DNA from: a virus
Lineage: Duplodnaviria; Heunggongvirae; Uroviricota; Caudoviricetes
Strand: one strand, 5' to 3'
Virus record (IMG/VR): IMGVR_UViG_2859793810_000007
DNA: 55,029 nucleotides
Shown: piece after piece, positions 11,244 to 39,460 of the stretch
How positions within the stretch are numbered: position 1 is the first letter of the stretch
Layout of the letters: each line of letters opens with the position of its first letter
The notes under the pieces: model-generated
The model's input: only the letters and a program-made list of their open reading frames with translations
Databases searched by the model: none
Told to the model about the DNA's origin: nothing
Translations under genes and position numbers: made by a program

Positions 11244-11572
11244 CAGTTCACCACCTGTTCAAAATCGGCCGTTACAGTCACCCATAACGCCCCCACGCTT
11301 GCCGACCATTTACGACAAACCACCCTGATCAGTTTCCAGTCATAAGGTGGCGTCCACTGAAATGCGCGGACGCCACCGTGCCGTTCCAGAAAGGCTTTTA
11401 AAGATGGGTGTTCACCTTTACGAACACGTATCGTCACGCTGTAAGTCGACAACTGGTTATTCAGTCCCGCCGCACGACGCTGTTCATAACCATCGCCCAG
11501 CTTCACTGTCACCACTTTCGGCTCTGATACCACATTCATATCCGGGCGCACTTTCCAGTGAAACGTCTCCAT
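11243..11572 (-). CDS. M: minor tail protein M
   Basis: 109 aa matching lambda gpM. Confidence 0.9.
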   Translation of the reverse strand: METFHWKVRPDMNVVSEPKVVTVKLGDGYEQRRAAGLNNQLSTYSVTIRVRKGEHPSLKAFLERHGGVRAFQWTPPYDWKLIRVVCRKWSASVGALWVTVTADFEQVVN

Positions 11573-14500
11573 TACCGGTATGCTCCACTTAACCGGCCAC
11601 CATCACGGGCCTGCTGTTGCATAAAGTCCGCGGCCGCTTTTTTCCCGAGGTCATAAACCACCTTCAGGGCAGCCGGACCTATCTGCCCGTTCGTGCCGTC
11701 GTTATTGATCTCAATGTTGTACTGCGGGGCAAACATCACCATGCCTGAACCACCAGTATCCGCCACAACCCCCAGCTTACCATCAGCACCGCGACGCAGT
11801 GGCAGAATGGCTTCAGGTCCCGCTTCCCCCATCACACCCGCGCCTTTTGCAAAAGCAAAAAACGTCGGACGGTTAACCACCGTGCCACTGTAGCGACTCA
11901 AATCAGCAGACTGGTAAACACCGCCATCAGCATTAGTCGTGAAGCCGAATAAAGAACCGACGCCCTTTACCGCCTGCATCATGGCCATCTGTGCCATAAT
12001 TCTGGCCATATCTGACAACAGGGAAGAGGTGAAGGATTTAAAATTCAGCTTACCGGTGGTACAGAATGTCGCCAGTGCATTACCGGCACTGCTGAATGCC
12101 ACTGTAAACATCTGTTCTGCCGTTCCCGCCGCATTATCCGCATCCGCCGTAAAATTCTGAAACGCCCGCATGGCACCGTTTTTCCAGTCGCCCTGCGCCA
12201 CTTCCAGTTCCTGCCAGTAGCGTTTGTTTTCATTCAGTTGTCGCTTCAGGCTCCCCTTCAGCACCTCCTCAGCCCTCCGGTAGTCCTCCGTCCCGTAAGT
12301 GCCTTTCTGGCGACTGTCATTCTCAAGCTGTTGCAACTGTTGCCGGTATTCCTGCCGGATGCGCAACTGTGCCTGGTAGCGCTGCCGCTGCTTATCCCCC
12401 ATACCTGCAGTGGCAATATCCAGATTGTGCTGCTCACGCAGTGCACGTTCTTTGTCTGCCAGCTGGCTGGTCAGCTGAACCGTTTTTTTTTCTCAGGTCG
12501 TTAAGCGCTGTCTGTTTCTGCAGCTCCTGCTGTTTCACATCCAGCAGCGTCAGCGCCTGAATCAGCTCATTCTTACGGGCCAGCACACTCTTTTCATCTG
12601 CCGTCAGCTTTTTCCCGTCCAGGTCGCTGATGCGCTGCTGCAGGGCCAGAAGCTGTTTATGCGCTTCAGTCATCCTTTCAGTGGCAATGCCTGCTGACTG
12701 TCTGGCAGCAGCAATCTGCCCTTCCACCTGTGCCTGCTGCTGACTGTACTGCAGCAATAACCGGGTGGCCTCATCATTACGGGTTGCCCGTGTATTTTTC
12801 TTAATGGCTTTTTCGTAACGTTCATTTTCACGCTGTATCGCCGCATCCCTGACAGCCTGGTCGGCGTACTGCATGGCATTAATACGCGCAATTTCCCGCT
12901 GATGTCGTGCAGCTTCCGTTTCATTCATCCGGTTCAGCGCGGCATTTTCAGCATTCCGGCGTTTCTGTTGCTCCTGGTAATTCCGTTCTGCCTGCGCTTT
13001 TGCATCCTGCAAATCCTTCCGGCGTTTTTTCTCCTGAAGATCGTTAAGACGCTGCTGATCGTACTCCACCTGTGTGGAGGCGTTTGTCCACGGATATTTT
13101 TTCGCGCGCTGAATTTTTTCCTGTAACGCATCAATCTGCGCATCCAGCGAGTCTTCACGACCAATATTCATGGCCGCATCCCAGAACTGCTTCCACCAGT
13201 CAGACAAGGTTTGCAGCGTACTACCCAGCGCATTGAGATTATTATCAATATCAGATGTGCGTTTACCGGTTTCCTCTGCCAGCGCAGACATGGCGATCCG
13301 GGCCGCATCACTGGACCGCCCCTGCTCCCCAAGGACGCGTATCTGCTCAAGCTGAGTGGCATTCAAAAAATGCAGCGCATTGTCCAGCGCCTTCGCGGCA
13401 TTTACAGGATCATCCTTCAGCCGCTTAAACTGATTTATGGTATCGCTGACCGACTGGCCAACCGATCGCTCCATCTGTGCGGCAGCTTTCGCCACCATAC
13501 CAATATCGTTTCCATGAAATGCCCCACTGCCCACCACCTGTGCCAGCGCACCGGCTGCCGCATGTTGCGTGATACCATTCCCGGATATGGCCCGGCTGAG
13601 TTTCCACAACTGCCCGACAGTGACACCGGCATAATGTCCCGTCAGCGCCAGCTGACGGTTAAATTTCTCGCCCTCCTTCCGGCCGTCATGCCAGGCTTTA
13701 CCCAGACCCAGGACCGCCGCGACAAGTCCGCCAATAACGCCGCCAGTCATCATGCCTTTCGGCGACATCAGTGCGCCTGTCCATCCGGCACGGTTAGCCA
13801 GCGTTATCCCGGATCCCCTCAGCGCACCAAAATTGCCTCGCGCCATCTGACTGATTAACACCCCCAGCTCCCGCCGGGCTGCCGCACTTTTCAGCCCCAG
13901 CGAATGTGTGGCTTTTCCTGCCCGCTCCATTTTGCGGATATACACTTCTGCAGCACTGCTTACCCCCAGCTGAGCCGCCCTGGCGCGAAGCAACTCAGAA
14001 GACGACAGATTCTGGCGGGTTGCCTGCTCTTTAAGCTGGCGGATAAACGCCGCTTTCTGCCGGGTGGCCTGTTCCTCTGCCTGCGTCAGGGCACGGGTTT
14101 TCGCCGTGATCTCCGAAATCAGCGCCAGATAATCCTGCTGACCAACCCCGCCACTGTTTCTGGCCTGTCGGATCTGCTGCTGAATACGCTGTAATTCCTG
14201 AAGCCCCGCACCGGCCTGTTTCACACTGTCAATCTGGCGATAAAAGGCGGCAGCCGCTTTATCCTGCGCCTCCGCCAGTGCCCTGGCCTGCGCCTGTTCC
14301 TCGCGCATTTTCTGATTCAGGGCATCCACGCGCAGACGGGTTTGTTCCACCTCACGGGCCATGCGTTCATGAGCCCGTGCATTCTTCTCCACCGTCTGCG
14401 CATGGGCTGATGCTGCTGTTGCAGCCGAAGAAGCCGCCTGCATTGTCTGCCGGGCCGCCTGAGTCTGACGCTCCATAAAACGCTGCATACGGGCAGAAGA

Positions 14501-14614
14501 CCGTTCTGCATCGCTGGCTGCACCATTCAGAAGGTTTTTGATACGGGGAATTTCATTTTTAAACTCTGCCGCATCAATCCCCAAATCAATGACCAGGTTG
14601 GCTATCTGGTCCAT
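11572..14614 (-). pseudogene. H: tail tape measure protein H, split by a frameshift
   Basis: N-part 12434-14614 (coiled-coil, Gly-rich) and C-part 11572-12402 (ends ...NNDGTNGQIGPAALKVVYDLGKK... like lambda gpH); frames diverge at the 9-A run (plus-strand T9, 12483-12491). Confidence 0.8.
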
Positions 14615-14915
14615 AACGCACACCTCCGGAAATACCTTCCCCAAGATGCATCAGTTCTTCGTCCGTTCGCTCCGGTATCCCGTTCTCTTCCGGTAAAAGG
14701 CTGAAATCAGCCACCGCAGCATCGCTGCTGCCGGACACCATTCTCACGATCAATGCCTTCAGCGAGGCAAACTGCGCATCCATCCACACATCACTGAAGC
14801 TCTGCATCCGGAAATAATCGCCCCACTCACCAAGCTCAGTGGCCGACATATCCGACAGCATCCGCCGCCAGTCTGCCCGCCGGAACTCCCGGGCAAGCCG
14901 CATGACAAACTGCAT
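14586..14915 (-). CDS. T: tail assembly chaperone T segment (expressed as G-T fusion by -1 frameshift)
   Basis: ORF in -1 frame overlapping the end of G, lambda G/T arrangement. Confidence 0.6.
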   Translation of the reverse strand: MQFVMRLAREFRRADWRRMLSDMSATELGEWGDYFRMQSFSDVWMDAQFASLKALIVRMVSGSSDAAVADFSLLPEENGIPERTDEELMHLGEGISGGVRYGPDSQPGH

Positions 14916-14923
14916 TTCCCGCG

Positions 14924-15310
14924 TCAGGACTTTTCCGGCGTCAGCGCCTCATGATCATCATCCCCGGCATTCTCAATGGTCCCCATACCGCTCAGCGACA
15001 GAACCCTCTCCGCCCCCGCGCCCAGCGCATCATACGACCATGTTGTCATAATGGATGCGCAAAGCGTCTCAACATCCTGAGACTGCTCAGCATTCCACAG
15101 TGAGCGGGAAACCAGCCAGGCATTGATATCCATTCCCATACGCAGAAAAGCAATCTGTCGTTCAGCCTCCGGCAGTTCTCCCTCCTGTGCATCAAACTTT
15201 GCCGTTCGCTGCTGAACAAACGTCAGATATTCAATTCTCTGCAGCCCGGACAGCTCACTGAGCACCACGGACTGTTTTTCATAATTAAACGTATCCTGTT
15301 TCAGAAACAT
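14924..15310 (-). CDS. G: tail assembly chaperone G
   Basis: MFLKQDTFNYEKQSVVLSELSGLQRIEYL... like lambda gpG; GGAG RBS upstream of the ATG pair at 15308-15313. Confidence 0.8.
   Translation of the reverse strand: MFLKQDTFNYEKQSVVLSELSGLQRIEYLTFVQQRTAKFDAQEGELPEAERQIAFLRMGMDINAWLVSRSLWNAEQSQDVETLCASIMTTWSYDALGAGAERVLSLSGMGTIENAGDDDHEALTPEKS
14930..14938 (-). other. candidate G-T programmed -1 slippery site
   Basis: minus strand reads CCG GAA AAG TCC TGA at the end of G; G GAA AAG is a near-cognate variant of the lambda G GGA AAG site, 2 codons before the G stop. Confidence 0.3.
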
Positions 15311-19385: not shown

Positions 19386-20891
19386 TCATGGCATGGCCAT
19401 GAGCATTTTCACGTCCGCATCACCGTCTGCTGACGTCTGTGGCACGCCACCCTGTACCGCTGCCGGTGAATGGTTCGCCATGAAATGTTCAAACATGGCG
19501 GTTGTGGATGCAGAAACCGGTTCTGCCCTGCCTGAGGCTGCCGCCAGTACAGCCCGGGCATTCTCCACGGTCATCCCCGGACAGGCCGCCAGTTTTTCAG
19601 CCTGCGCCTCTGCCCCTTTTGCCTCATCCAGGGCCATAATCTGATCACGAAGTGAGGGTCCGGCATTCGCCTGCGGTGAAGCAGCCAGAATCGGACGGGC
19701 TTTTTCCACCGTCATCTCCGGCATCGCCGCCAGCGTTGCCGCCAGTTGTTCACGTCCTTTCGCCTCTTCACATGCCATAATGCGATCGGCTTCACTCTGC
19801 GCAGATACACCAGATTGTTGCGGTGCCGCCACGGCCAGAATCGCCCGGGCCTGCTCAACGCTCATACCCTGTTGCCCTGCCAGCATCGTGGCCAGTTGTT
19901 CACGTCCTTTCGCTTCCTGACACGTCAGGATCCCCATCACTCGCTGGTTCTCCTGCGCGGCAGCCTCCGTTGCAGTTAATTGCGGCATAGTGCCTCCTGT
20001 ATCGTGTGTGTTCAGCGTCGCAGCCATCACGCTGATGGCGTCCGACGCATTGATTAATTCATCCGCCAGTTCGGCCTCAATACCGGACTGACCTTCAAAA
20101 ACGGCGGCCTCTGTTCCCATAACCGCATCCACAGATAAACCGGTATACATCGCCACTTTTTCAGCAAACATCCGGCGCGCCGCATCAATGCGCTGCTGCA
20201 TGTCCTGGCGAACCTTTGCTGGCAGGGATTCAAACTGATTGCCATCCACCTTGTGCGATCCGGCGTAAATCAGCGTGATATCCACACCGGCCTGTGCCAG
20301 ATGACCGGCATAGCTGACATGGCCCATCATCACCCCAATGGAGCCGATACGGGATGTCTGGGTAACCAGCCGTCGGGAGCAGGCCGATGCCAGTAACATG
20401 GCGGCTGAACAGGCCGTGTCATTGCACAGTGCCCAGACAGGCTTCAGCTGCCGGAGACGGTAAATCATGTCAGCGCAGTCAAACGCGCCGGTGGCCTGCC
20501 CGCCAGAACTGTCAATGTCCAGCAGTACGCCCCGTACCTGAGTGTCCGCCATTGCCTGCTGAAGACAGGCGACAATGCCGTCATAGCCAGTCATTCCGGA
20601 AAATGGCCGCATGCCACCCAGCCGGTGTACCAGCGTGCCGGTCACCGGCAGTACAGCAATACCGTTCACCACCCGGTAAACACGGGCAGGTCGTTTGCCT
20701 CCGGCCATGTACTCGTCCGTTTCAGCCAGCATCCCGGGAGCGTCAAGCTGTACCTGCTGTTGCGGTACCGAAAGGCTTGCTGCGCCCATCTCACGCCCGA
20801 GCGCGCAAAAGAAAACCCGCGCATAGGCGGGCTCCAGAAGCAGCGGCTCATTGAATGCCGCAGCGATAATATGTGAAAGATTACGTCTCAC
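19386..20891 (-). CDS. C: prohead protease/scaffold C (with in-frame Nu3)
   Basis: 501 aa; AFNEPLLLEPAYARVFFCAL...GSIGVMMGH... matches lambda gpC (S49-type protease). Confidence 0.85.
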   Translation of the reverse strand: MRRNLSHIIAAAFNEPLLLEPAYARVFFCALGREMGAASLSVPQQQVQLDAPGMLAETDEYMAGGKRPARVYRVVNGIAVLPVTGTLVHRLGGMRPFSGMTGYDGIVACLQQAMADTQVRGVLLDIDSSGGQATGAFDCADMIYRLRQLKPVWALCNDTACSAAMLLASACSRRLVTQTSRIGSIGVMMGHVSYAGHLAQAGVDITLIYAGSHKVDGNQFESLPAKVRQDMQQRIDAARRMFAEKVAMYTGLSVDAVMGTEAAVFEGQSGIEAELADELINASDAISVMAATLNTHDTGGTMPQLTATEAAAQENQRVMGILTCQEAKGREQLATMLAGQQGMSVEQARAILAVAAPQQSGVSAQSEADRIMACEEAKGREQLAATLAAMPEMTVEKARPILAASPQANAGPSLRDQIMALDEAKGAEAQAEKLAACPGMTVENARAVLAAASGRAEPVSASTTAMFEHFMANHSPAAVQGGVPQTSADGDADVKMLMAMP

Positions 20892-22474
20892 GTGATGTTG
20901 TCTCCTCTTCCGGCCTGCGACTCTCCGCTATCTGCTGCTGATACGCCTGGGCTATCCACACCGGACGTGAGAGTCCGGCTTTTTCGCGCTCTGCGGATTC
21001 CCTGACCTGCTGGCGGAAAATGTCCTGATAATCTTCGCCCATCAGTGCCAGTTCTTTCTCATACGTGCTCAGTCCGGCCTCAATGCGCATCACCGATTCC
21101 TGGACCTCCTTGAGCCCGTCAATGGCCATTCTTCCGGAGCTAATCCACTCTGCCCGTGACCAGGCTGAACGCGCCTGGTAAAAATCAAAACGCGCCCGTG
21201 GCGGACGAATAATCCCCCGAAGAAGCGCCTCTTCCAGCCAGCAGGAAAACATCTGCGTGGCCAGCCGGGCCGCAATAAATTTTCGCCGCCCCATAAAATA
21301 GCGCCACGACTCATTGGCGGAGGCGCGGGCACTTGAGTAACTGACCTTCGAGTAATCACGGGACAACTGTTCGTAGGAAACGCCAAGACCGGCTGCAATA
21401 TACCGCAGCAGCGCCTGTTCAAGCGCCGAAAATCCATTGTCTGAATCCTGCGCTGTCTGCAGGTTCAGCGCATCGCCAGGAAAAAAGGTGCGGAATTTTA
21501 ACACCGCCCAGCGTCACGTTATTCGTGTCATACCAGCGGGTGAACTTCTCCAGAATATTAATAAGCGGATTATCCTGCTGACCTTGCGGTGCCCCCGCGA
21601 TATATTCAAATGCCTTTTCGGTATCAAGTTCACTTTCGATTGTGGCTGCATACATCGCCTTCACAATGGCCGACTGAAGCTGCGTGGCCTGCAGGGAGTC
21701 CAGCATCTTCATCCGCTCCATTACGCTGTAAAACTGATTAGCCCCACGGGTCTGCCCGTCCTCCACCGGCTCAAAAATATGCAGCATGGCCGGACGCCCG
21801 GTGGGAAGCTCACGCGGGATCCGCTCCCAGCGTCCGGCACCAGAGAACGGAAAATCATCCTCACAGATATGGTACGCAATCGCCCGCCCATACCGATCGA
21901 CCTCAACCCCGGCCCGCAGAAAGTGGTTCCCCATACCGTGTCCTGGCGTGTCCACCCGTTTCGGACTCACGGCTTTAAAACGCGTACGGAATAACTGCGT
22001 GGTTTCCGTATCCCAGACCGGCTGCACAAAGATTTCGCCGTTAAAGGCATGCACGCCCACCCCTTCACGGATAAATTCCGTAAACGTGCGTTTCCCTTCC
22101 ACGTCGATCTCGCCAAACATTCCTTCTGCGTATTCCGACCAGGCTGCTTCCACCTCCCCGACAAAACTTTTTGCCGTGGTCTCCCGCATCCCCAGCCAAC
22201 GCCAGTTCAGACGGTAGCTGATAAGAAACATGTGCCCGACGATATGATCCTTATGCAGGGCCACCGCATTAGCCGCGATACCGTTATTGCGCACCAGATC
22301 ATCTGCCCGGGCATTCCCCAGACGCAATGCAGGCAACAGGGCCGCATCGGCACTCTGCGCCGGTGGTAACCACTCTGCCATTTGCCCGCCAAATCCTGCG
22401 CCGCCTCCGTTGTAGCTGAGACTCTCACGAAGCGGAACGCCGTTCACATCAATCAGGACAGGCGTTCGTTTCAT
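20881..22474 (-). pseudogene. B: portal protein B, split by a frameshift
   Basis: 351-aa and 207-aa ORFs both match lambda gpB; junction GGVKIPHLF / PGDALNLQTAQD falls on the T6 run (plus-strand A6, 21481-21486). Confidence 0.8.
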
Positions 22475-22674: not shown

Positions 22675-24585
22675 TCACTCCTCCGGACAGCTTCGCTGCC
22701 AGTTCTTCAAGGGTCGGTTGTGCAGTTGCATCCTTGCGGGATGCAACTGCACAGCCAGATCAAGTTGCCAGCGTTGCACGGACACACGTAATGCCGCATA
22801 GGCATACACCAGGCAGTCCAGCGCTTCGTTACGCCGCTTTTTGTTATCCCACAACAGACGCATCTTTCCTTTTTCCCACTTTTCCACCAGTTCCTCCGCC
22901 ACCAGTTGTTGTGCCTCTGTCTGCGAAAAAATCTCCGGATTATCAGGAAAGCGGATGGCATACGATGTGGCCTCATTCACAGGGGTGGGATCGGCCTTCA
23001 TTCGGGCATAGAGAATTTCTTTTGCGGTATCCGTCCCCACCTCACACAGATACACACCCCGCTGATTGCGGGTTTTCGGCATGGTGATCACCGGCTTGCC
23101 ATAGACAGAGGCACCTTTTACCGGCAGTACCCGGAAAATACCGTGTTTTTTTGACCTCTGATACACGATTTCGCCATCGATCCCCCCGATATCCCAGCAG
23201 ACACGGGAAATGGTCATTTCGGTACCGTCTGCATGGCGGTATTTTTTATTGATCGCCGCATCCACACGTAACAGCGTCTCTTCCTCATCAGGACGTCCCA
23301 TGATGATGATTTTATCCACCAGAAAGGCTTCCTCTCCCGGAGCCCACCCCCAGACATACATCTCAAAACGGTTTCGCTGCGAGTCAATGCCCGCCGTCAG
23401 ATAAACCACCCGGACAGGCACCGTTGCCGTGTAAGGCACAACCTTATCCATCAGTACCTGGTGATCGAGTTTTTCGCCCACGGCCTCTTCCCAGGTCTCG
23501 CCCAGCGTGGTGTTCACAAAAGTTTTCACGCCGTTGGGATCTTTCAGTGCATCCAGCCAGTCACAGACTATCTGTACCCTGGTGGTGAACGGACTGTACG
23601 CCGTCCATATATGGAAAGTGATGGAGCGCGGCGGCGGAATTTCATTACCCGAAGCACTGAAAAACGTCAGACCGTCACACGTCCACATCCCGGTATTGTC
23701 ACAAATCCAGCGCCCCCCGGTCTGATCAAGTTCAGACTGACGGATCACGCAGCCATTATGTTCACACAGGTAATACACCGTTTCCGGTTTACCCTTCTCC
23801 CATTTCAGGCCAAACGACGTCGCATCATCGCCAAACTTCAGATACTGCTCCTCCCCGCAATGAGGGCAAGGGACATAAAACCGCATGAAATGCGCAGATT
23901 CATTCGCAGCTTTTTCAATCTGACAGGAGCCTTTAATTTTTGGCGTTGAACCGCGTATGGATTTTGGCCATACCGAACCTTCAATACGTTTATCGCCAAG
24001 CAGTGTTGGCGAACCTTCTTTTTCCACATCCGGTTCAAACGAGGAGAGTTCGTCATAGCAGACCACATCGACAGATTTTTCACGGTAGTTTTTGGCAGCA
24101 GCACCACCCAAACACCAGAACCCCACACCAGAGGAAAAACGCTTCAGTGTGAGCGTATTATCCCGGTGTTTCCGGCCCAGCCAGGGAGAAAGTTTTTTCA
24201 GGCAAGGAACATCACGAATTGTTGCTTCCACGTGAGACTTCATAAAATCTTCAGCAGCTGAGTCCGTCGGCTGAAAAAGAAGAGTGTTGCGGGATTTGTG
24301 CTCAATAAAATACCCGATCACACCAAGCACCATTTTTGTATAACCAACACGGGCAGATTTAATCAGGTTAACTGTACGAATCTCGTCATTGCCCATGCAG
24401 TTCATGATGGCGACCTGAAACTGCAGCGTTTTCCATTCCCCCTCACCGTATGACGATTCTTTAGGCAGGTAATAATTTTGATCGGCCCATTCTACAGCCG
24501 TCACCGGCAATACCCTGACCAGTGGCTGCAGTGCGATAGTGACTGCCACCATCATATTACTCAGTTGTTGTTCTGATATATTCAT
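22675..24585 (-). CDS. A: terminase large subunit A
   Basis: MNISEQQLSN... and long collinear match to lambda gpA; ATG at 24583-24585. Confidence 0.9.
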   Translation of the reverse strand: MNISEQQLSNMMVAVTIALQPLVRVLPVTAVEWADQNYYLPKESSYGEGEWKTLQFQVAIMNCMGNDEIRTVNLIKSARVGYTKMVLGVIGYFIEHKSRNTLLFQPTDSAAEDFMKSHVEATIRDVPCLKKLSPWLGRKHRDNTLTLKRFSSGVGFWCLGGAAAKNYREKSVDVVCYDELSSFEPDVEKEGSPTLLGDKRIEGSVWPKSIRGSTPKIKGSCQIEKAANESAHFMRFYVPCPHCGEEQYLKFGDDATSFGLKWEKGKPETVYYLCEHNGCVIRQSELDQTGGRWICDNTGMWTCDGLTFFSASGNEIPPPRSITFHIWTAYSPFTTRVQIVCDWLDALKDPNGVKTFVNTTLGETWEEAVGEKLDHQVLMDKVVPYTATVPVRVVYLTAGIDSQRNRFEMYVWGWAPGEEAFLVDKIIIMGRPDEEETLLRVDAAINKKYRHADGTEMTISRVCWDIGGIDGEIVYQRSKKHGIFRVLPVKGASVYGKPVITMPKTRNQRGVYLCEVGTDTAKEILYARMKADPTPVNEATSYAIRFPDNPEIFSQTEAQQLVAEELVEKWEKGKMRLLWDNKKRRNEALDCLVYAYAALRVSVQRWQLDLAVQLHPARMQLHNRPLKNWQRSCPEE

Positions 24586-24864
24586 CGAGTAAATCCGGTA
24601 ATTTATCCCCCGCACGCGCGCACTGATTCGCTCCCTTAGCAATAAGGATTTTCAGATGATCAATATGACGCGGCGTTAAATCCGGGAACTGTCGTTGCAT
24701 GGACAAAGGAATGGAGTCAAGCGTACTGGATAAAGCCATCGCCAGCTTACTAAGGGCAAAAATACAAAATCCGGTATCGATAAGATTTCCTTTTGACACC
24801 TGATTTTTTAACTGCTGTGCGACAGCCTGTTCTGCGGTCAGTTCCCATCTGGCAATGAGTAGTT
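24557..24864 (-). pseudogene. Nu1: terminase small subunit Nu1, 3-prime fragment (5-prime part replaced by IS600)
   Basis: ...TGFCIFALSKLAMALSSTLDSIPLSMQRQFPDLTPRHIDHLK... matches the C-terminal half of lambda Nu1; ORF runs into the IS600 end. Confidence 0.75.
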
Positions 24865-24907
24865 TGAGGTGTACTGGCAATAGCGGACACTACCATTTGT
24901 TCTTTTT

Positions 24908-25726
24908 TTAAGCAGCCATCTGATGATATTTTTCCCTGAAGGCTGCCGGGGAGATATTCCCCAGACGAGAGTGACGACGCTGACGATTGTAGAAAATCTC
25001 AATGTATTCCCGTATTACTGAGATGGCTTCATCCCGGTTATTAAAACGATAGTGGCTCAGGCTCTCATTTTTCAGCGTTCCCCAGAAGCTTTCCATCGGA
25101 GCATTGTCGTAACAGTTACCTTTACGCGACATTGATGTTTTCAGACCAGACTGCTCCTGTATGACCCGGTAATCGTATGCGCAGTACTGTGAACCTCGAT
25201 CAGAGTGGTGGATTAGCCCGGCAGGTGGGCGCTGGCTCCTGAGCGCCATAAACAGGGCTTTACCTGTCAGCTCTTTTGTCATGCGCTCTCCCATGGCGTA
25301 GCCGACAATTTCACACGTATAAACATCTTTGATGCCAGCGAGGTACAACCATCCCTCCTGTGTGGCAACATACGTCAGGTCCGCCACCCAGACCTGATTT
25401 GGTGCTGTAGGAGCGAACGTCTGGTTCAGCAGATTTGGCGCAACTGGCAGATTGTGGTTCGGGTTCGTAGTCGCTCTGAACTTGCGTTTCTGCTTACAGC
25501 GTAGCCTTAGCTCCTTACGAAGACGTGCCAGTCGGTCACGACCAACGATGATGCCATTCTCTGCCAGCTCCGTCTGGAGCCGCCGGGTTCCATATGTTTC
25601 GCGAGTGCGGATATGTGCCACCTTAATCTCCGGTTTTAGCCGCTCATCACTTTGTTTTCTGTCTGAGGGTTCATGCTGTACCCAGTTGTAATAACCGCTC
25701 CTGGATACACCAAATACCTGACACAT
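24908..25726 (-). CDS. IS600 transposase OrfB (DDE integrase domain)
   Basis: 272 aa; ...HSDRGSQYCAYDY... IS3-family catalytic region. Confidence 0.9.
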   Translation of the reverse strand: MCQVFGVSRSGYYNWVQHEPSDRKQSDERLKPEIKVAHIRTRETYGTRRLQTELAENGIIVGRDRLARLRKELRLRCKQKRKFRATTNPNHNLPVAPNLLNQTFAPTAPNQVWVADLTYVATQEGWLYLAGIKDVYTCEIVGYAMGERMTKELTGKALFMALRSQRPPAGLIHHSDRGSQYCAYDYRVIQEQSGLKTSMSRKGNCYDNAPMESFWGTLKNESLSHYRFNNRDEAISVIREYIEIFYNRQRRHSRLGNISPAAFREKYHQMAA

Positions 25727-25761
25727 CGCTTCAATGGGAAATTGTTGTCGCCATTGTTCGA

Positions 25762-26064
25762 TTAACGCGTATTTTTCAGCGACTCCTGTGCAAAATACGC
25801 TGTTGCTTTTTTTAATATATCTCGCTCAAGGCGAGCTTCATTTAACGCCTTACGCAGTTGCAGAATTTCAGATTCCAGTTCAGCCAGCGTGCGGGAACCA
25901 GGAGTACCGAGCCCTTTTCTGGCGGCGGTAACCCATTGTCCTAAAGTGCCTTCAGGAAGAGATAATCGGGAAGCGCCTTCACTGATCGAAAGTTGATTTT
26001 CAAGAACCGTTCTGACAGCTTCGGCTTTGAACTCTTTAGAGTAACGTTGGGTTTTTCTGCTCAT
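25762..26064 (-). CDS. IS600 OrfA (HTH/leucine-zipper)
   Basis: 100 aa MSRKTQRYSKEFKAEAVRTVLENQ...; A AAA AAA slippery motif near its 3-prime end for OrfAB fusion. Confidence 0.9.
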   Translation of the reverse strand: MSRKTQRYSKEFKAEAVRTVLENQLSISEGASRLSLPEGTLGQWVTAARKGLGTPGSRTLAELESEILQLRKALNEARLERDILKKATAYFAQESLKNTR

Positions 26065-32057: not shown

Positions 32058-33226
<1,169 letters not shown>

Positions 33227-33234
33227 CCACTTCA

Positions 33235-33944
33235 TTGCGCAGTTCTTCACTTGCTGAGGAAAAAACAAGCGTTCCATCCTTCTCGACATACCCATCCGTT
33301 TCAAGCAGACCACACAGCATGCCTATACGCGTTGATTTATTTGCGGAAAAAAACACACGAGGGATGAATTTGTTTTTTGCTGTGCACCCCATTAGTCCAT
33401 AACCTCGCAGGGTCTCCATGAGTGGATTTACCTGACCACGCGCCGTTGATATCAGCCAGTCCTTACCATCTCCAGAGAAGTTGTAATCAGGCAGTTCAGC
33501 CTTCATACGCTCGATCATGTATGGCTCGACGTTTGAAAACTTCACGCTCCCATTGCTAAGACTACCATCCCCGAGAAGGGAGCCGATAACCCATGCTAAT
33601 GGCTCTGAGTGGTCGCCAAAGTCACCAGTTATTTCAGGAATCCTAACGCCATTTTTGTGCCTCTTCGTTTCACTCAACCGCTTCAACCCGAAGGTATCTA
33701 TCACGCGGCGTTTCTCGCCTTTCGTGAATCCACGACTAGTGACCTCCCATAGGTGATCGCCTGCGCAATCAACATAACGACCATCTTCAAATGTGACTCG
33801 GTAAACATCTCTAACACCCTGCGGGAATATCCCAGTGACAGTTGACGGATTGCCGTCTACTGACGCCACCTGATCGCCAATTTTTACATTCCCGTGAGTA
33901 GTCCATGTCCCATCAGCTAAAAGAATAGGCTCATTCAGTGGGCA
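33235..33944 (-). other. intein remnant (Hint N-terminal block plus LAGLIDADG homing-endonuclease motifs), C-terminal splicing region missing
   Basis: block A-like CPLNEPILLADGT (compare CFAKGTNVLMADGS of a yeast VMA intein); LAGLIDADG-type motifs AWVIGSLLGDGSL (33558-33596) and IGMLCGLLETDGYV (33285-33326). Confidence 0.65.
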
Positions 33945-35060
33945 TGCCTTTCCGTGACCGTGCACACCATTGACCAGCGTCAACTCTGCCTCACGGAACT
34001 GGAATTTATCTGCCAGAGATTCCCACGGTGGATTAAACAGATACTGCTGCTTGCCGTAGAAAGCGTTGATAGTGTCCTGGTAAAACTCTCGCGCACTGTA
34101 GAGTTCTTCAGGATCGAAGTAGGATGCCGTGCCGATGTACTGCCAGATTTCATCCTCGGTAACACCGTTCATCAGGCATTCGTTGATGTCTTTGTACGGC
34201 AGAGTAACAAGACGGCAACGATGTTCACCGAGTCGGCTTACGATTTCCCTTGCGGCTTCACGACCAACATCATCAACGTCCATCGAGATGAATATTTCCT
34301 CAAACCTGTCGAGGTTGTGATACTCAAACTCAATCCACTGTTGCTTAGCGCCTTTCCCGCCACCAAACGGCACGGATAACGCCGAGATGCCGTATTGCGC
34401 ATAGCTCATACAATCAATTTCGCCTTCGCAAAGCACAACCACCCTCACGCCAGCGTCCAGAGCCTGCCATCCGAACAGGCAAGGTTCGCAATCACCTTCT
34501 GCCATAATGACTTTCTTCCCGTCCGGGCGCTCAGTGCTGATTCGCTTGACCTGCAACAACTCACCATCGCGTTTGTACGGAAGCACCAGAGCATCCAGTT
34601 CTCGTTCTCCATTCCACACCTTGCCGCTGACAACCTCGTAGCGCTTTACGACTTCTGGCGATATGCCACGCGATTGCAGGTACTCAAGATGGGATTCTGT
34701 TCTGGTAACGTAGCGGGCGATTTTCTTACGATCAGGTCTGGAGAATTTCTTCTCACGTCTGGCATCGAAATGGTGATCGTCATCCTTGATACCGAGAAAT
34801 GCTTTCGCTTCCTGCATAGCCTGATGCAGGTTAATTCCACGACATGCCATCCACAAATCAAGCATGTCACCGCCGTCTCCCTCAGCGAAATCAGCCCATT
34901 TTTTCTTGCCGATAAGGTTGACCTTAAGGCTGTTTCCCTTGTCACCGTTGACGTTACCGGCAACCCACTCATGCCCCTCTATCTTGCCGTTTGGCAACAG
35001 GTGCGGAGCCACCCTGTCAACCTGCGCCCAAAGCAGGTCGCTAAGTTCACTTGGCCTCAT
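33235..35060 (-). pseudogene. T7 gp4-like primase-helicase interrupted by an intein and 3-prime truncated by IS911
   Basis: TOPRIM motifs VVLCEGEIDCMS and ISMDVDDVG (34251-34448); P-loop-like NGVHGHGKA (33945-33968) immediately followed by Cys-initiated intein; ORF runs into IS911 right end. Confidence 0.7.
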
Positions 35061-35673: not shown

Positions 35674-36465
35674 ATGTGTCAGGTATTTGGTGTATCCAGG
35701 AGCGGTTATTACAACTGGGTACAGCATGAACCCTCAGACAGAAAACAAAGTGATGAGCGGCTAAAACTGGAGATTAAGGTGGCACATATCCGCACTCGCG
35801 AAACATATGGAACCCGGCGGCTCCAGACGGAGCTGGCAGAGAATGGCATCATCGTTGGTCGTGACCGACTGGCACGTCTTCGTAAGGAGCTGAGGCTACG
35901 CTGTAAGCAGAAACGCAAGTTCAGAGCGACTACGAACCCGAACCACAATCTGCCAGTTGCGCCAAATCTGCTGAACCAGACGTTCGCTCCTACAGCACCA
36001 AATCAGGTCTGGGTGGCGGACCTGACGTATGTTGCTGGCATCAAAGATGTTTATACGTGCGAAATTGTCGGCTACGCCATGGGAGAGCGCATGACAAAAG
36101 AGCTGACAGGTAAAGCCCTGTTTATGGCGCTCAGGAGCCAGCGCCCACCTGCCGGGCTAATCCACCACTCTGATCGAGGTTCACAGTACTGCGCATACGA
36201 TTACCGGGTCATACAGGAGCAGTCTGGTCTGAAAACATCAATGTCGCGTAAAGGTAACTGTTACGACAACGCTCCGATGGAAAGCTTCTGGGGAACGCTG
36301 AAAAATGAGAGCCTGAGCCACTATCGTTTTAATAACCGGGATGAAGCCATCTCAGTAATACGGGAATACATTGAGATTTTCTACAATCGTCAGCGTCGTC
36401 ACTCTCGTCTGGGGAATATCTCCCCGGCAGCCTTCAGGGAAAAATATCATCAGATGGCTGCTTAA
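35674..36465 (+). CDS. IS600 OrfB, 9-aa deletion variant
   Basis: 263 aa versus 272 aa in the other copies. Confidence 0.85.
   Translation: MCQVFGVSRSGYYNWVQHEPSDRKQSDERLKLEIKVAHIRTRETYGTRRLQTELAENGIIVGRDRLARLRKELRLRCKQKRKFRATTNPNHNLPVAPNLLNQTFAPTAPNQVWVADLTYVAGIKDVYTCEIVGYAMGERMTKELTGKALFMALRSQRPPAGLIHHSDRGSQYCAYDYRVIQEQSGLKTSMSRKGNCYDNAPMESFWGTLKNESLSHYRFNNRDEAISVIREYIEIFYNRQRRHSRLGNISPAAFREKYHQMAA

Positions 36466-38291: not shown

Positions 38292-39460
<1,169 letters not shown>

Follow-up and report, generated by a model that had tools for sequence, protein, structure and literature searches.

A probable A8 to A9 slippage mutation splits the tape measure gene of a defective ipaH-carrying prophage in Shigella flexneri

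Introduction

The DNA analysed here, called the window below, is a 55,029-nt stretch filed as the IMG/VR virus record IMGVR_UViG_2859793810_000007. In it the gene for the phage tail tape measure protein, H, is split between two open reading frames that meet in a run of nine A's. The question raised by this locus is whether the ninth A is a real mutation, an error of sequencing or assembly, or part of a functional site at which the two frames are rejoined during expression or by changes of tract length.

The window is identical to CP026788.1 over 15,166 nt (100% identity), and CP026788.1 is the sequence of Shigella flexneri 2a ATCC 29903 (PMC9455713, PMC9430107). The window is chromosomal DNA of this strain and holds what remains of a lambda-like prophage, with ipaH as cargo, next to ybhB. 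The tail and head genes of the prophage follow ipaH on the minus strand and extend to about position 24865. Past that point the window is a mosaic of IS3-family elements, lysis and replication genes, part of a second phage, a Mu-type transposase gene and dcuC. The features that bear on the question are collected in Table 1.

Table 1. Coordinates of the tape measure locus and of other prophage features in the window
Feature	Position	Strand
ybhB, at the start of the window	1-477	
ipaH, cargo gene for a T3SS E3 ubiquitin ligase effector, at the prophage end adjoining ybhB	1060..2823	+
Tail fibre gene, interrupted at about 3931, where 4 nt (one CCAG repeat unit) are deleted	3577..5030	-
Tail tip gene J, in 721-aa and 429-aa parts owing to a 1-nt deletion at about 7102 (C5 to C4, plus strand)	5719..9197	-
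C-terminal 303 codons of H in the original frame, with Tape_meas_lam_C	11572..12482	-
A9 homopolymer, one base longer (+1) than the A8 of intact alleles	12483..12491	-
N-terminal tape measure fragment, 726 aa, with Pfam TMP_2 and TMP_4	12434..14614	-
Tail assembly protein T frame, Pfam Phage_tail_T; overlaps the H start; -1 frame relative to G	14586..14915	-
Tail assembly chaperone G, Pfam Phage_TAC_2	14924..15310	-
Portal gene, split into 351-aa and 207-aa parts by a +1 insertion at about 21481 (A5 to A6, plus strand)	20881..22474	-
Truncated small terminase ORF	24557..24880	-

The tract and the split gene

Direct reading of the window placed a T9 run on the plus strand at 12483-12491, in the context GAACCG TTTTTTTTT CTCAGG with exactly nine T, which is A9 in the minus-strand gene H. 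The open reading frame of the N-terminal fragment starts at an ATG at 14614 and stops at 12434-12436. Its 726 residues consist of native residues 1-710, ending ...ALNDLRKK, and of 16 out-of-frame residues, NGSADQPAGRQRTCTA. The second frame is open from the tract to 11572 and reads ...KKTVQLTSQLADKERALREQHNLDIATAGMGDKQRQRYQ...; within it lies a 276-aa ORF (11572-12402), which is the C part of H counted from its first ATG, at 12402. The switch between the frames of the 726-aa and 276-aa ORFs falls exactly within the A9 tract, and a reading made from the sequence alone, which had described two H ORFs joined by T9 (A9 in the gene), was correct on this point.

In the A8 form of the gene the in-frame codons at the tract are CTG AGA AAA AAA ACG (L R K K T). 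When one A was deleted from the tract in silico, a single 3042-nt ORF of 1013 aa was obtained, reading ...ALNDLRKKTVQLTSQLADKERALREQHNLDIATAGMGDKQRQRYQ...; the sequence-only reading had predicted a continuous protein of about 1010 aa, and the repaired product is an exact match to a common Shigella protein (see below). With the extra A, the frame is lost after residue 710, a premature stop follows, and the last 303 residues are gone together with the Tape_meas_lam_C domain. Because the C-terminal 303 residues and this lambda-type domain are lost, H in the window is a pseudogene of its family and not a working member, being present as two ORFs with no single uninterrupted one.

The identity of the gene is unambiguous: Pfam domains and gene order both make it a lambda gpH-type tape measure gene, in agreement with its earlier identification as H. 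The N-terminal fragment matched TMP_2 (1.9e-46) and TMP_4 (9.2e-17), and the C-terminal fragment matched Tape_meas_lam_C (1.9e-25), all above the Pfam gathering scores. In annotated relatives and among the called genes of an identical locus, H lies between the G/T chaperone genes upstream and M, L, K, I and J downstream.

The 55-kb window has no A/T run of 9 nt besides this T9. Shuffled sequences of the same composition contained on average 0.85 such runs, and at least one was present in 54 of 100 shuffles; a single run in 55 kb is within what composition leads one to expect. The case made below therefore rests on the position of the tract and on comparisons with other genomes, and not on the rarity of the run.

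Tract length among relatives and in public data

Ten E. coli or EIEC chromosomes match the H region at 99.1-99.8% identity, one of them with a second copy, and the tract is T8/A8 in all 11 copies, which settles affirmatively the question posed by the sequence-only reading of whether related prophages carry A8. An intact 3042-nt tape measure CDS is annotated in seven of the 10 closest chromosomes; in the other three the annotation flags a disruption at another place in the gene. The extra base is the only indel across the H/T region relative to close relatives, and a comparison of the 5.9-kb block containing H with L011, the best long relative, showed no indel other than the extra T.

Wider searches gave a similar distribution. 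An exact-pattern scan that allowed A7 to A10 found A8 in all four matches among the species-representative genomes (GTDB); among the 27 matches that it found in IMG/VR contigs, the tract was A8 in 23 and A7 in four, and A9 was not found. The repaired 1013-aa protein is, verbatim, a Shigella tape measure protein that occurs on at least 1000 contigs and in 5052 index blocks. The 276-aa C fragment occurs in 42 index blocks, the A9 form of the N fragment (726 aa) on three contigs and its A7 form (713 aa) on 21 contigs.

Loci recovered through the 276-aa fragment fell into two classes, A9 and A7. Over 3344 nt, four of the A7 loci match the window without a single SNP, and at least 20 samples share one A7 contig. 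Five assemblies carry A9: CP026788.1, CP026793.1 (strain 74-1170, serotype 5a), CP026871.1, and the Logan assemblies of SRR6181323 and SRR35896918. The SRR6181323 contig has two differences from the window, both upstream of H, and the SRR35896918 contig is common to four samples. A Logan contig of SRR7186906 equals the window at all 11,051 aligned positions, the J frameshift included, except at the tract, where it has A8.

Some S. flexneri strains, represented by CP026871.1, the Logan contig of SRR35896918 and CP026776.1, lack 303 nt of H in frame, corresponding to about 13990-14292 of the window. The junction of this deletion reads ...EEQAQARA followed by AQLGVSS..., and in a working phage the deletion would shorten the tail. 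This background carries both tract states, A9 in CP026871.1 and SRR35896918 and A8 in CP026776.1, where H is open at 912 aa.

Overall, A7, A8 and A9 occur on backgrounds that are 0-2 SNPs apart over 3.3-11 kb. Such closely related backgrounds with different tract lengths indicate that the tract is a slippage hot spot whose length has changed more than once, as replication slippage at a homopolymer would be expected to cause.

Sequencing or assembly error as an alternative

The contig of SRR7186906 brings in an alternative to a real mutation: A9 may have come from a faulty consensus or assembly, or from a minority variant of a mixed culture, with A8 and an intact H in the true ATCC 29903 sequence. 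Since this short contig agrees with the window at every one of its 11,051 aligned positions other than the tract, A9 could be specific to one assembly or one stock. The identical intact protein is also overwhelmingly the common state, and no other homopolymer in the region is as long as the tract. The assembly accessions of the three complete A9 genomes are neighbours, suggesting a single project and pipeline, and other genomes in the same accession range contain scattered, unshared frameshifts in neighbouring tail genes.

Against an error of this kind, A9 is present also in contigs from other runs, SRR6181323 and SRR35896918, the latter in a contig common to four samples. The reproducibility of A7 in at least 20 samples means that real length variation at the tract exists. 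Nor is the assembly generally error-prone here: there is no further indel between the window and the SRR7186906 contig over 11 kb, and the other A8 run within the comparison (3498-3505) shows no indel relative to L011. A literature search for the SRA runs and for the method used to sequence ATCC 29903 returned nothing usable on the platform behind the A9 and A8 contigs. On this balance we regard an error or a minority variant as rather unlikely. The recurrence of A9 in independently produced assemblies besides CP026788.1 argues for a real tract, and strain ATCC 29903 probably has a genuine A9.

Other lesions of the prophage

H is one of several damaged genes in the module (Table 1; intact relatives served as the reference). 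Public assemblies contain the 351-aa portal fragment in 2587 index blocks, so the portal lesion must be old and widely shared, and this frameshift is common to thousands of Shigella assemblies. The J lesion was found on only six contigs. Homology of the small terminase ORF to intact relatives ends at 24865, beside an IS3-family element (rve transposase, 24908-25726).

Genomes with the J lesion differ in the state of H. It is intact in CP026810.1 and SRR7186906, has the in-frame deletion in CP026776.1, is split elsewhere in UGYR01000001.1 and is split at A9 in the window. This variety among J-lesion genomes indicates that the H frameshift came late and is lineage- or strain-specific, in a module no longer able to form particles.

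Two of these, both complete S. flexneri genomes, have further oddities. In CP026810.1 and UGYR01000001.1 alike, M and L are called as one 313-aa fusion, at about 4212-5154 in the numbering of their own loci. In both, too, I or H is split at other sites, and there are several tail-gene frameshifts that are absent from other genomes; these frameshifts may be real decay or may be long-read indel errors.

The gene K was considered as another pseudogene, as the gene caller reported only 199 aa at the identical locus. This candidate was rejected: translation of the window gives K its whole 247 aa without interruption, and the 199-aa call is an artefact of start choice. The window also differs from L011 by 1 nt at 22749, where the sequences diverge locally, close to the 3' end of the large terminase gene. 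Public genomes contain both 636-aa and 642-aa versions of this protein, and its C-terminus may be altered in the window.

Recoding or phase variation as an alternative

A different possibility is that A9 is functional, a recoding or phase-variation site that tunes the amount of full-length tape measure protein through transcriptional slippage, ribosomal frameshifting or reversible ON/OFF switching of tract length. A slippery sequence does lie exactly at the frame junction. Bacterial RNA polymerase begins to slip efficiently at nine A's, a mechanism that S. flexneri employs at mxiE (PMC1088944). Runs of 7, 8 and 9 A's are all found on nearly identical backgrounds, so that, as in a phase-variable locus, length differs between close isolates.

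The two-frame layout is not conserved, however. The in-frame A8 form accounts for 5052 index blocks against 42 for all frameshifted forms, and A8 is in frame in 11/11 copies from the E. coli relatives, in 4/4 GTDB matches and in 23/27 IMG/VR matches. The viable phages mEp460, cdtI and Ayreon read CTG AAG AAA AAA ACA in frame at this position, with a run of only A7. With portal, J and tail fibre all non-working, no particle can moreover be expected whose production could be regulated. Programmed frameshifting was ruled out by the unconserved out-of-frame layout and by these in-frame viable phages, and a recoding or phase-variation function as a whole appears highly improbable.

The boldest version of this idea makes the A-tract of H a reversible switch, in which A7, A8 and A9 would interconvert fast on one background, A9 would be leaky through RNA polymerase slippage, and the tail module would be under selection. 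If so, the tail module of the ipaH prophage would be kept by selection, for example as a domesticated tail-like particle, and would not simply be decaying. We think it very unlikely that the tract works in this way.

Origin and consequences of the A9 tract

The explanation that we favour, and hold to be likely, is that A9 in the window is a real and neutral replication-slippage mutation, A8 to A9, that made a pseudogene in an already defective prophage. In this prophage the gpH-type tape measure gene normally has an A8 tract (AGA AAA AAA A), and the polymorphism in tract length points to slipped-strand mispairing during DNA replication as the most likely source of the ninth A. With the extra base the frame shifts after residue 710, and the 16 wrong residues are followed by a stop.

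The C-terminal domain of lambda gpH is needed for starting tail assembly on the tip complex. By analogy with lambda, a tape measure protein that has lost this domain with its last 303 residues would be unable to nucleate tail assembly there. The mutation was probably neutral all the same, since damage to portal, J and tail fibre, together with loss of the terminase end next to an IS element, already left the prophage unable to form particles. Against a reading of neutral decay, the intact H allele is retained in more than 99% of occurrences.

Some full-length product may still be made. A tract of nine A's should be long enough for RNA polymerase to slip on it, and minority transcripts with 8 or 11 A's could encode the full-length protein, so that leaky rescue by transcriptional slippage is plausible. 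The DNA tract itself could also readily revert.

In its domains (TMP_2, TMP_4 and Tape_meas_lam_C) and in the gene order V, G, T, H, M, L, K, I, J, the locus resembles the lambda gpH type as found in mEp460, cdtI and Ayreon. These and their relatives are the closest sequenced viable phages, with about 87.5% DNA identity in H. Unlike theirs, the H gene of the window is interrupted by a +1 frameshift, and the local codons also differ, being AGA AAA AAA A in Shigella and EIEC (A8; here A9) and AAG AAA AAA A in the viable phages (A7).

Frameshift mutations from A8 to A9 are already known. Baranov et al. (2005, PMC1088944) described 'pseudo pseudogenes', in which such a mutation creates a slippage-prone A9 and some full-length product is still made, A9 being the length at which RNA polymerase slippage turns efficient in many bacteria. 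The tract in H shows the same exact A8 to A9 extension relative to in-frame homologues and, again like those genes, does so in only some isolates of the species. It differs in that the prophage around it was already defective, so that any rescued product would have no obvious use.

The surroundings are those of the defective ipaH-carrying lambdoid remnants of Shigella and EIEC, with ipaH beside a lambda-like tail and head module, several IS3-family elements and multiple pseudogenes. There is no material difference from these remnants; the frameshift allele of the window is simply rare among carriers of the module. The H frameshift is ordinary prophage decay of a known kind and calls for no new mechanism.

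For annotation, the two ORFs should share a single entry, a tape measure pseudogene with a frameshift that belongs to a defective ipaH prophage of the S. flexneri type strain, and the finding has little importance beyond this. Its only mildly notable point is the coexistence of A7, A8 and A9 at a coding A8 tract in near-identical Shigella isolates, of which it is a clean example. As such it counsels caution about homopolymer calls in reference genomes, and it could serve as a test case for rescue of A8 to A9 mutations by transcriptional slippage.

Other features of the window

The end of G (14924-14940, minus strand) reads CCG GAA AAG TCC TGA; the T frame, at -1, reads GGA AAA GTC.... The conserved -1 frameshift between G and T of lambda-like tails would be expected here. 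The heptamer here is G GAA AAG, unlike the G GGA AAG of lambda.

At least five IS3-family transposase ORFs (rve) lie within 25 kb, at 24908-26064, 32387-33226, 35674-36465, 38621-39460 and 48031-48849. These elements cut the prophage up and separate it from the second-phage fragments (42977-47747; portal_3, DUF2213 and major capsid) and from the Mu-type transposase gene (49249-50883). The 3' end of a 619-aa ORF with Toprim_2 (33201-35060, minus strand) abuts one of the IS3-family transposase genes. This ORF has two weak matches, to LAGLIDADG_3 just above the Pfam cut-off and to Hom_end_hint below it, and may be an intein-containing primase-like gene.
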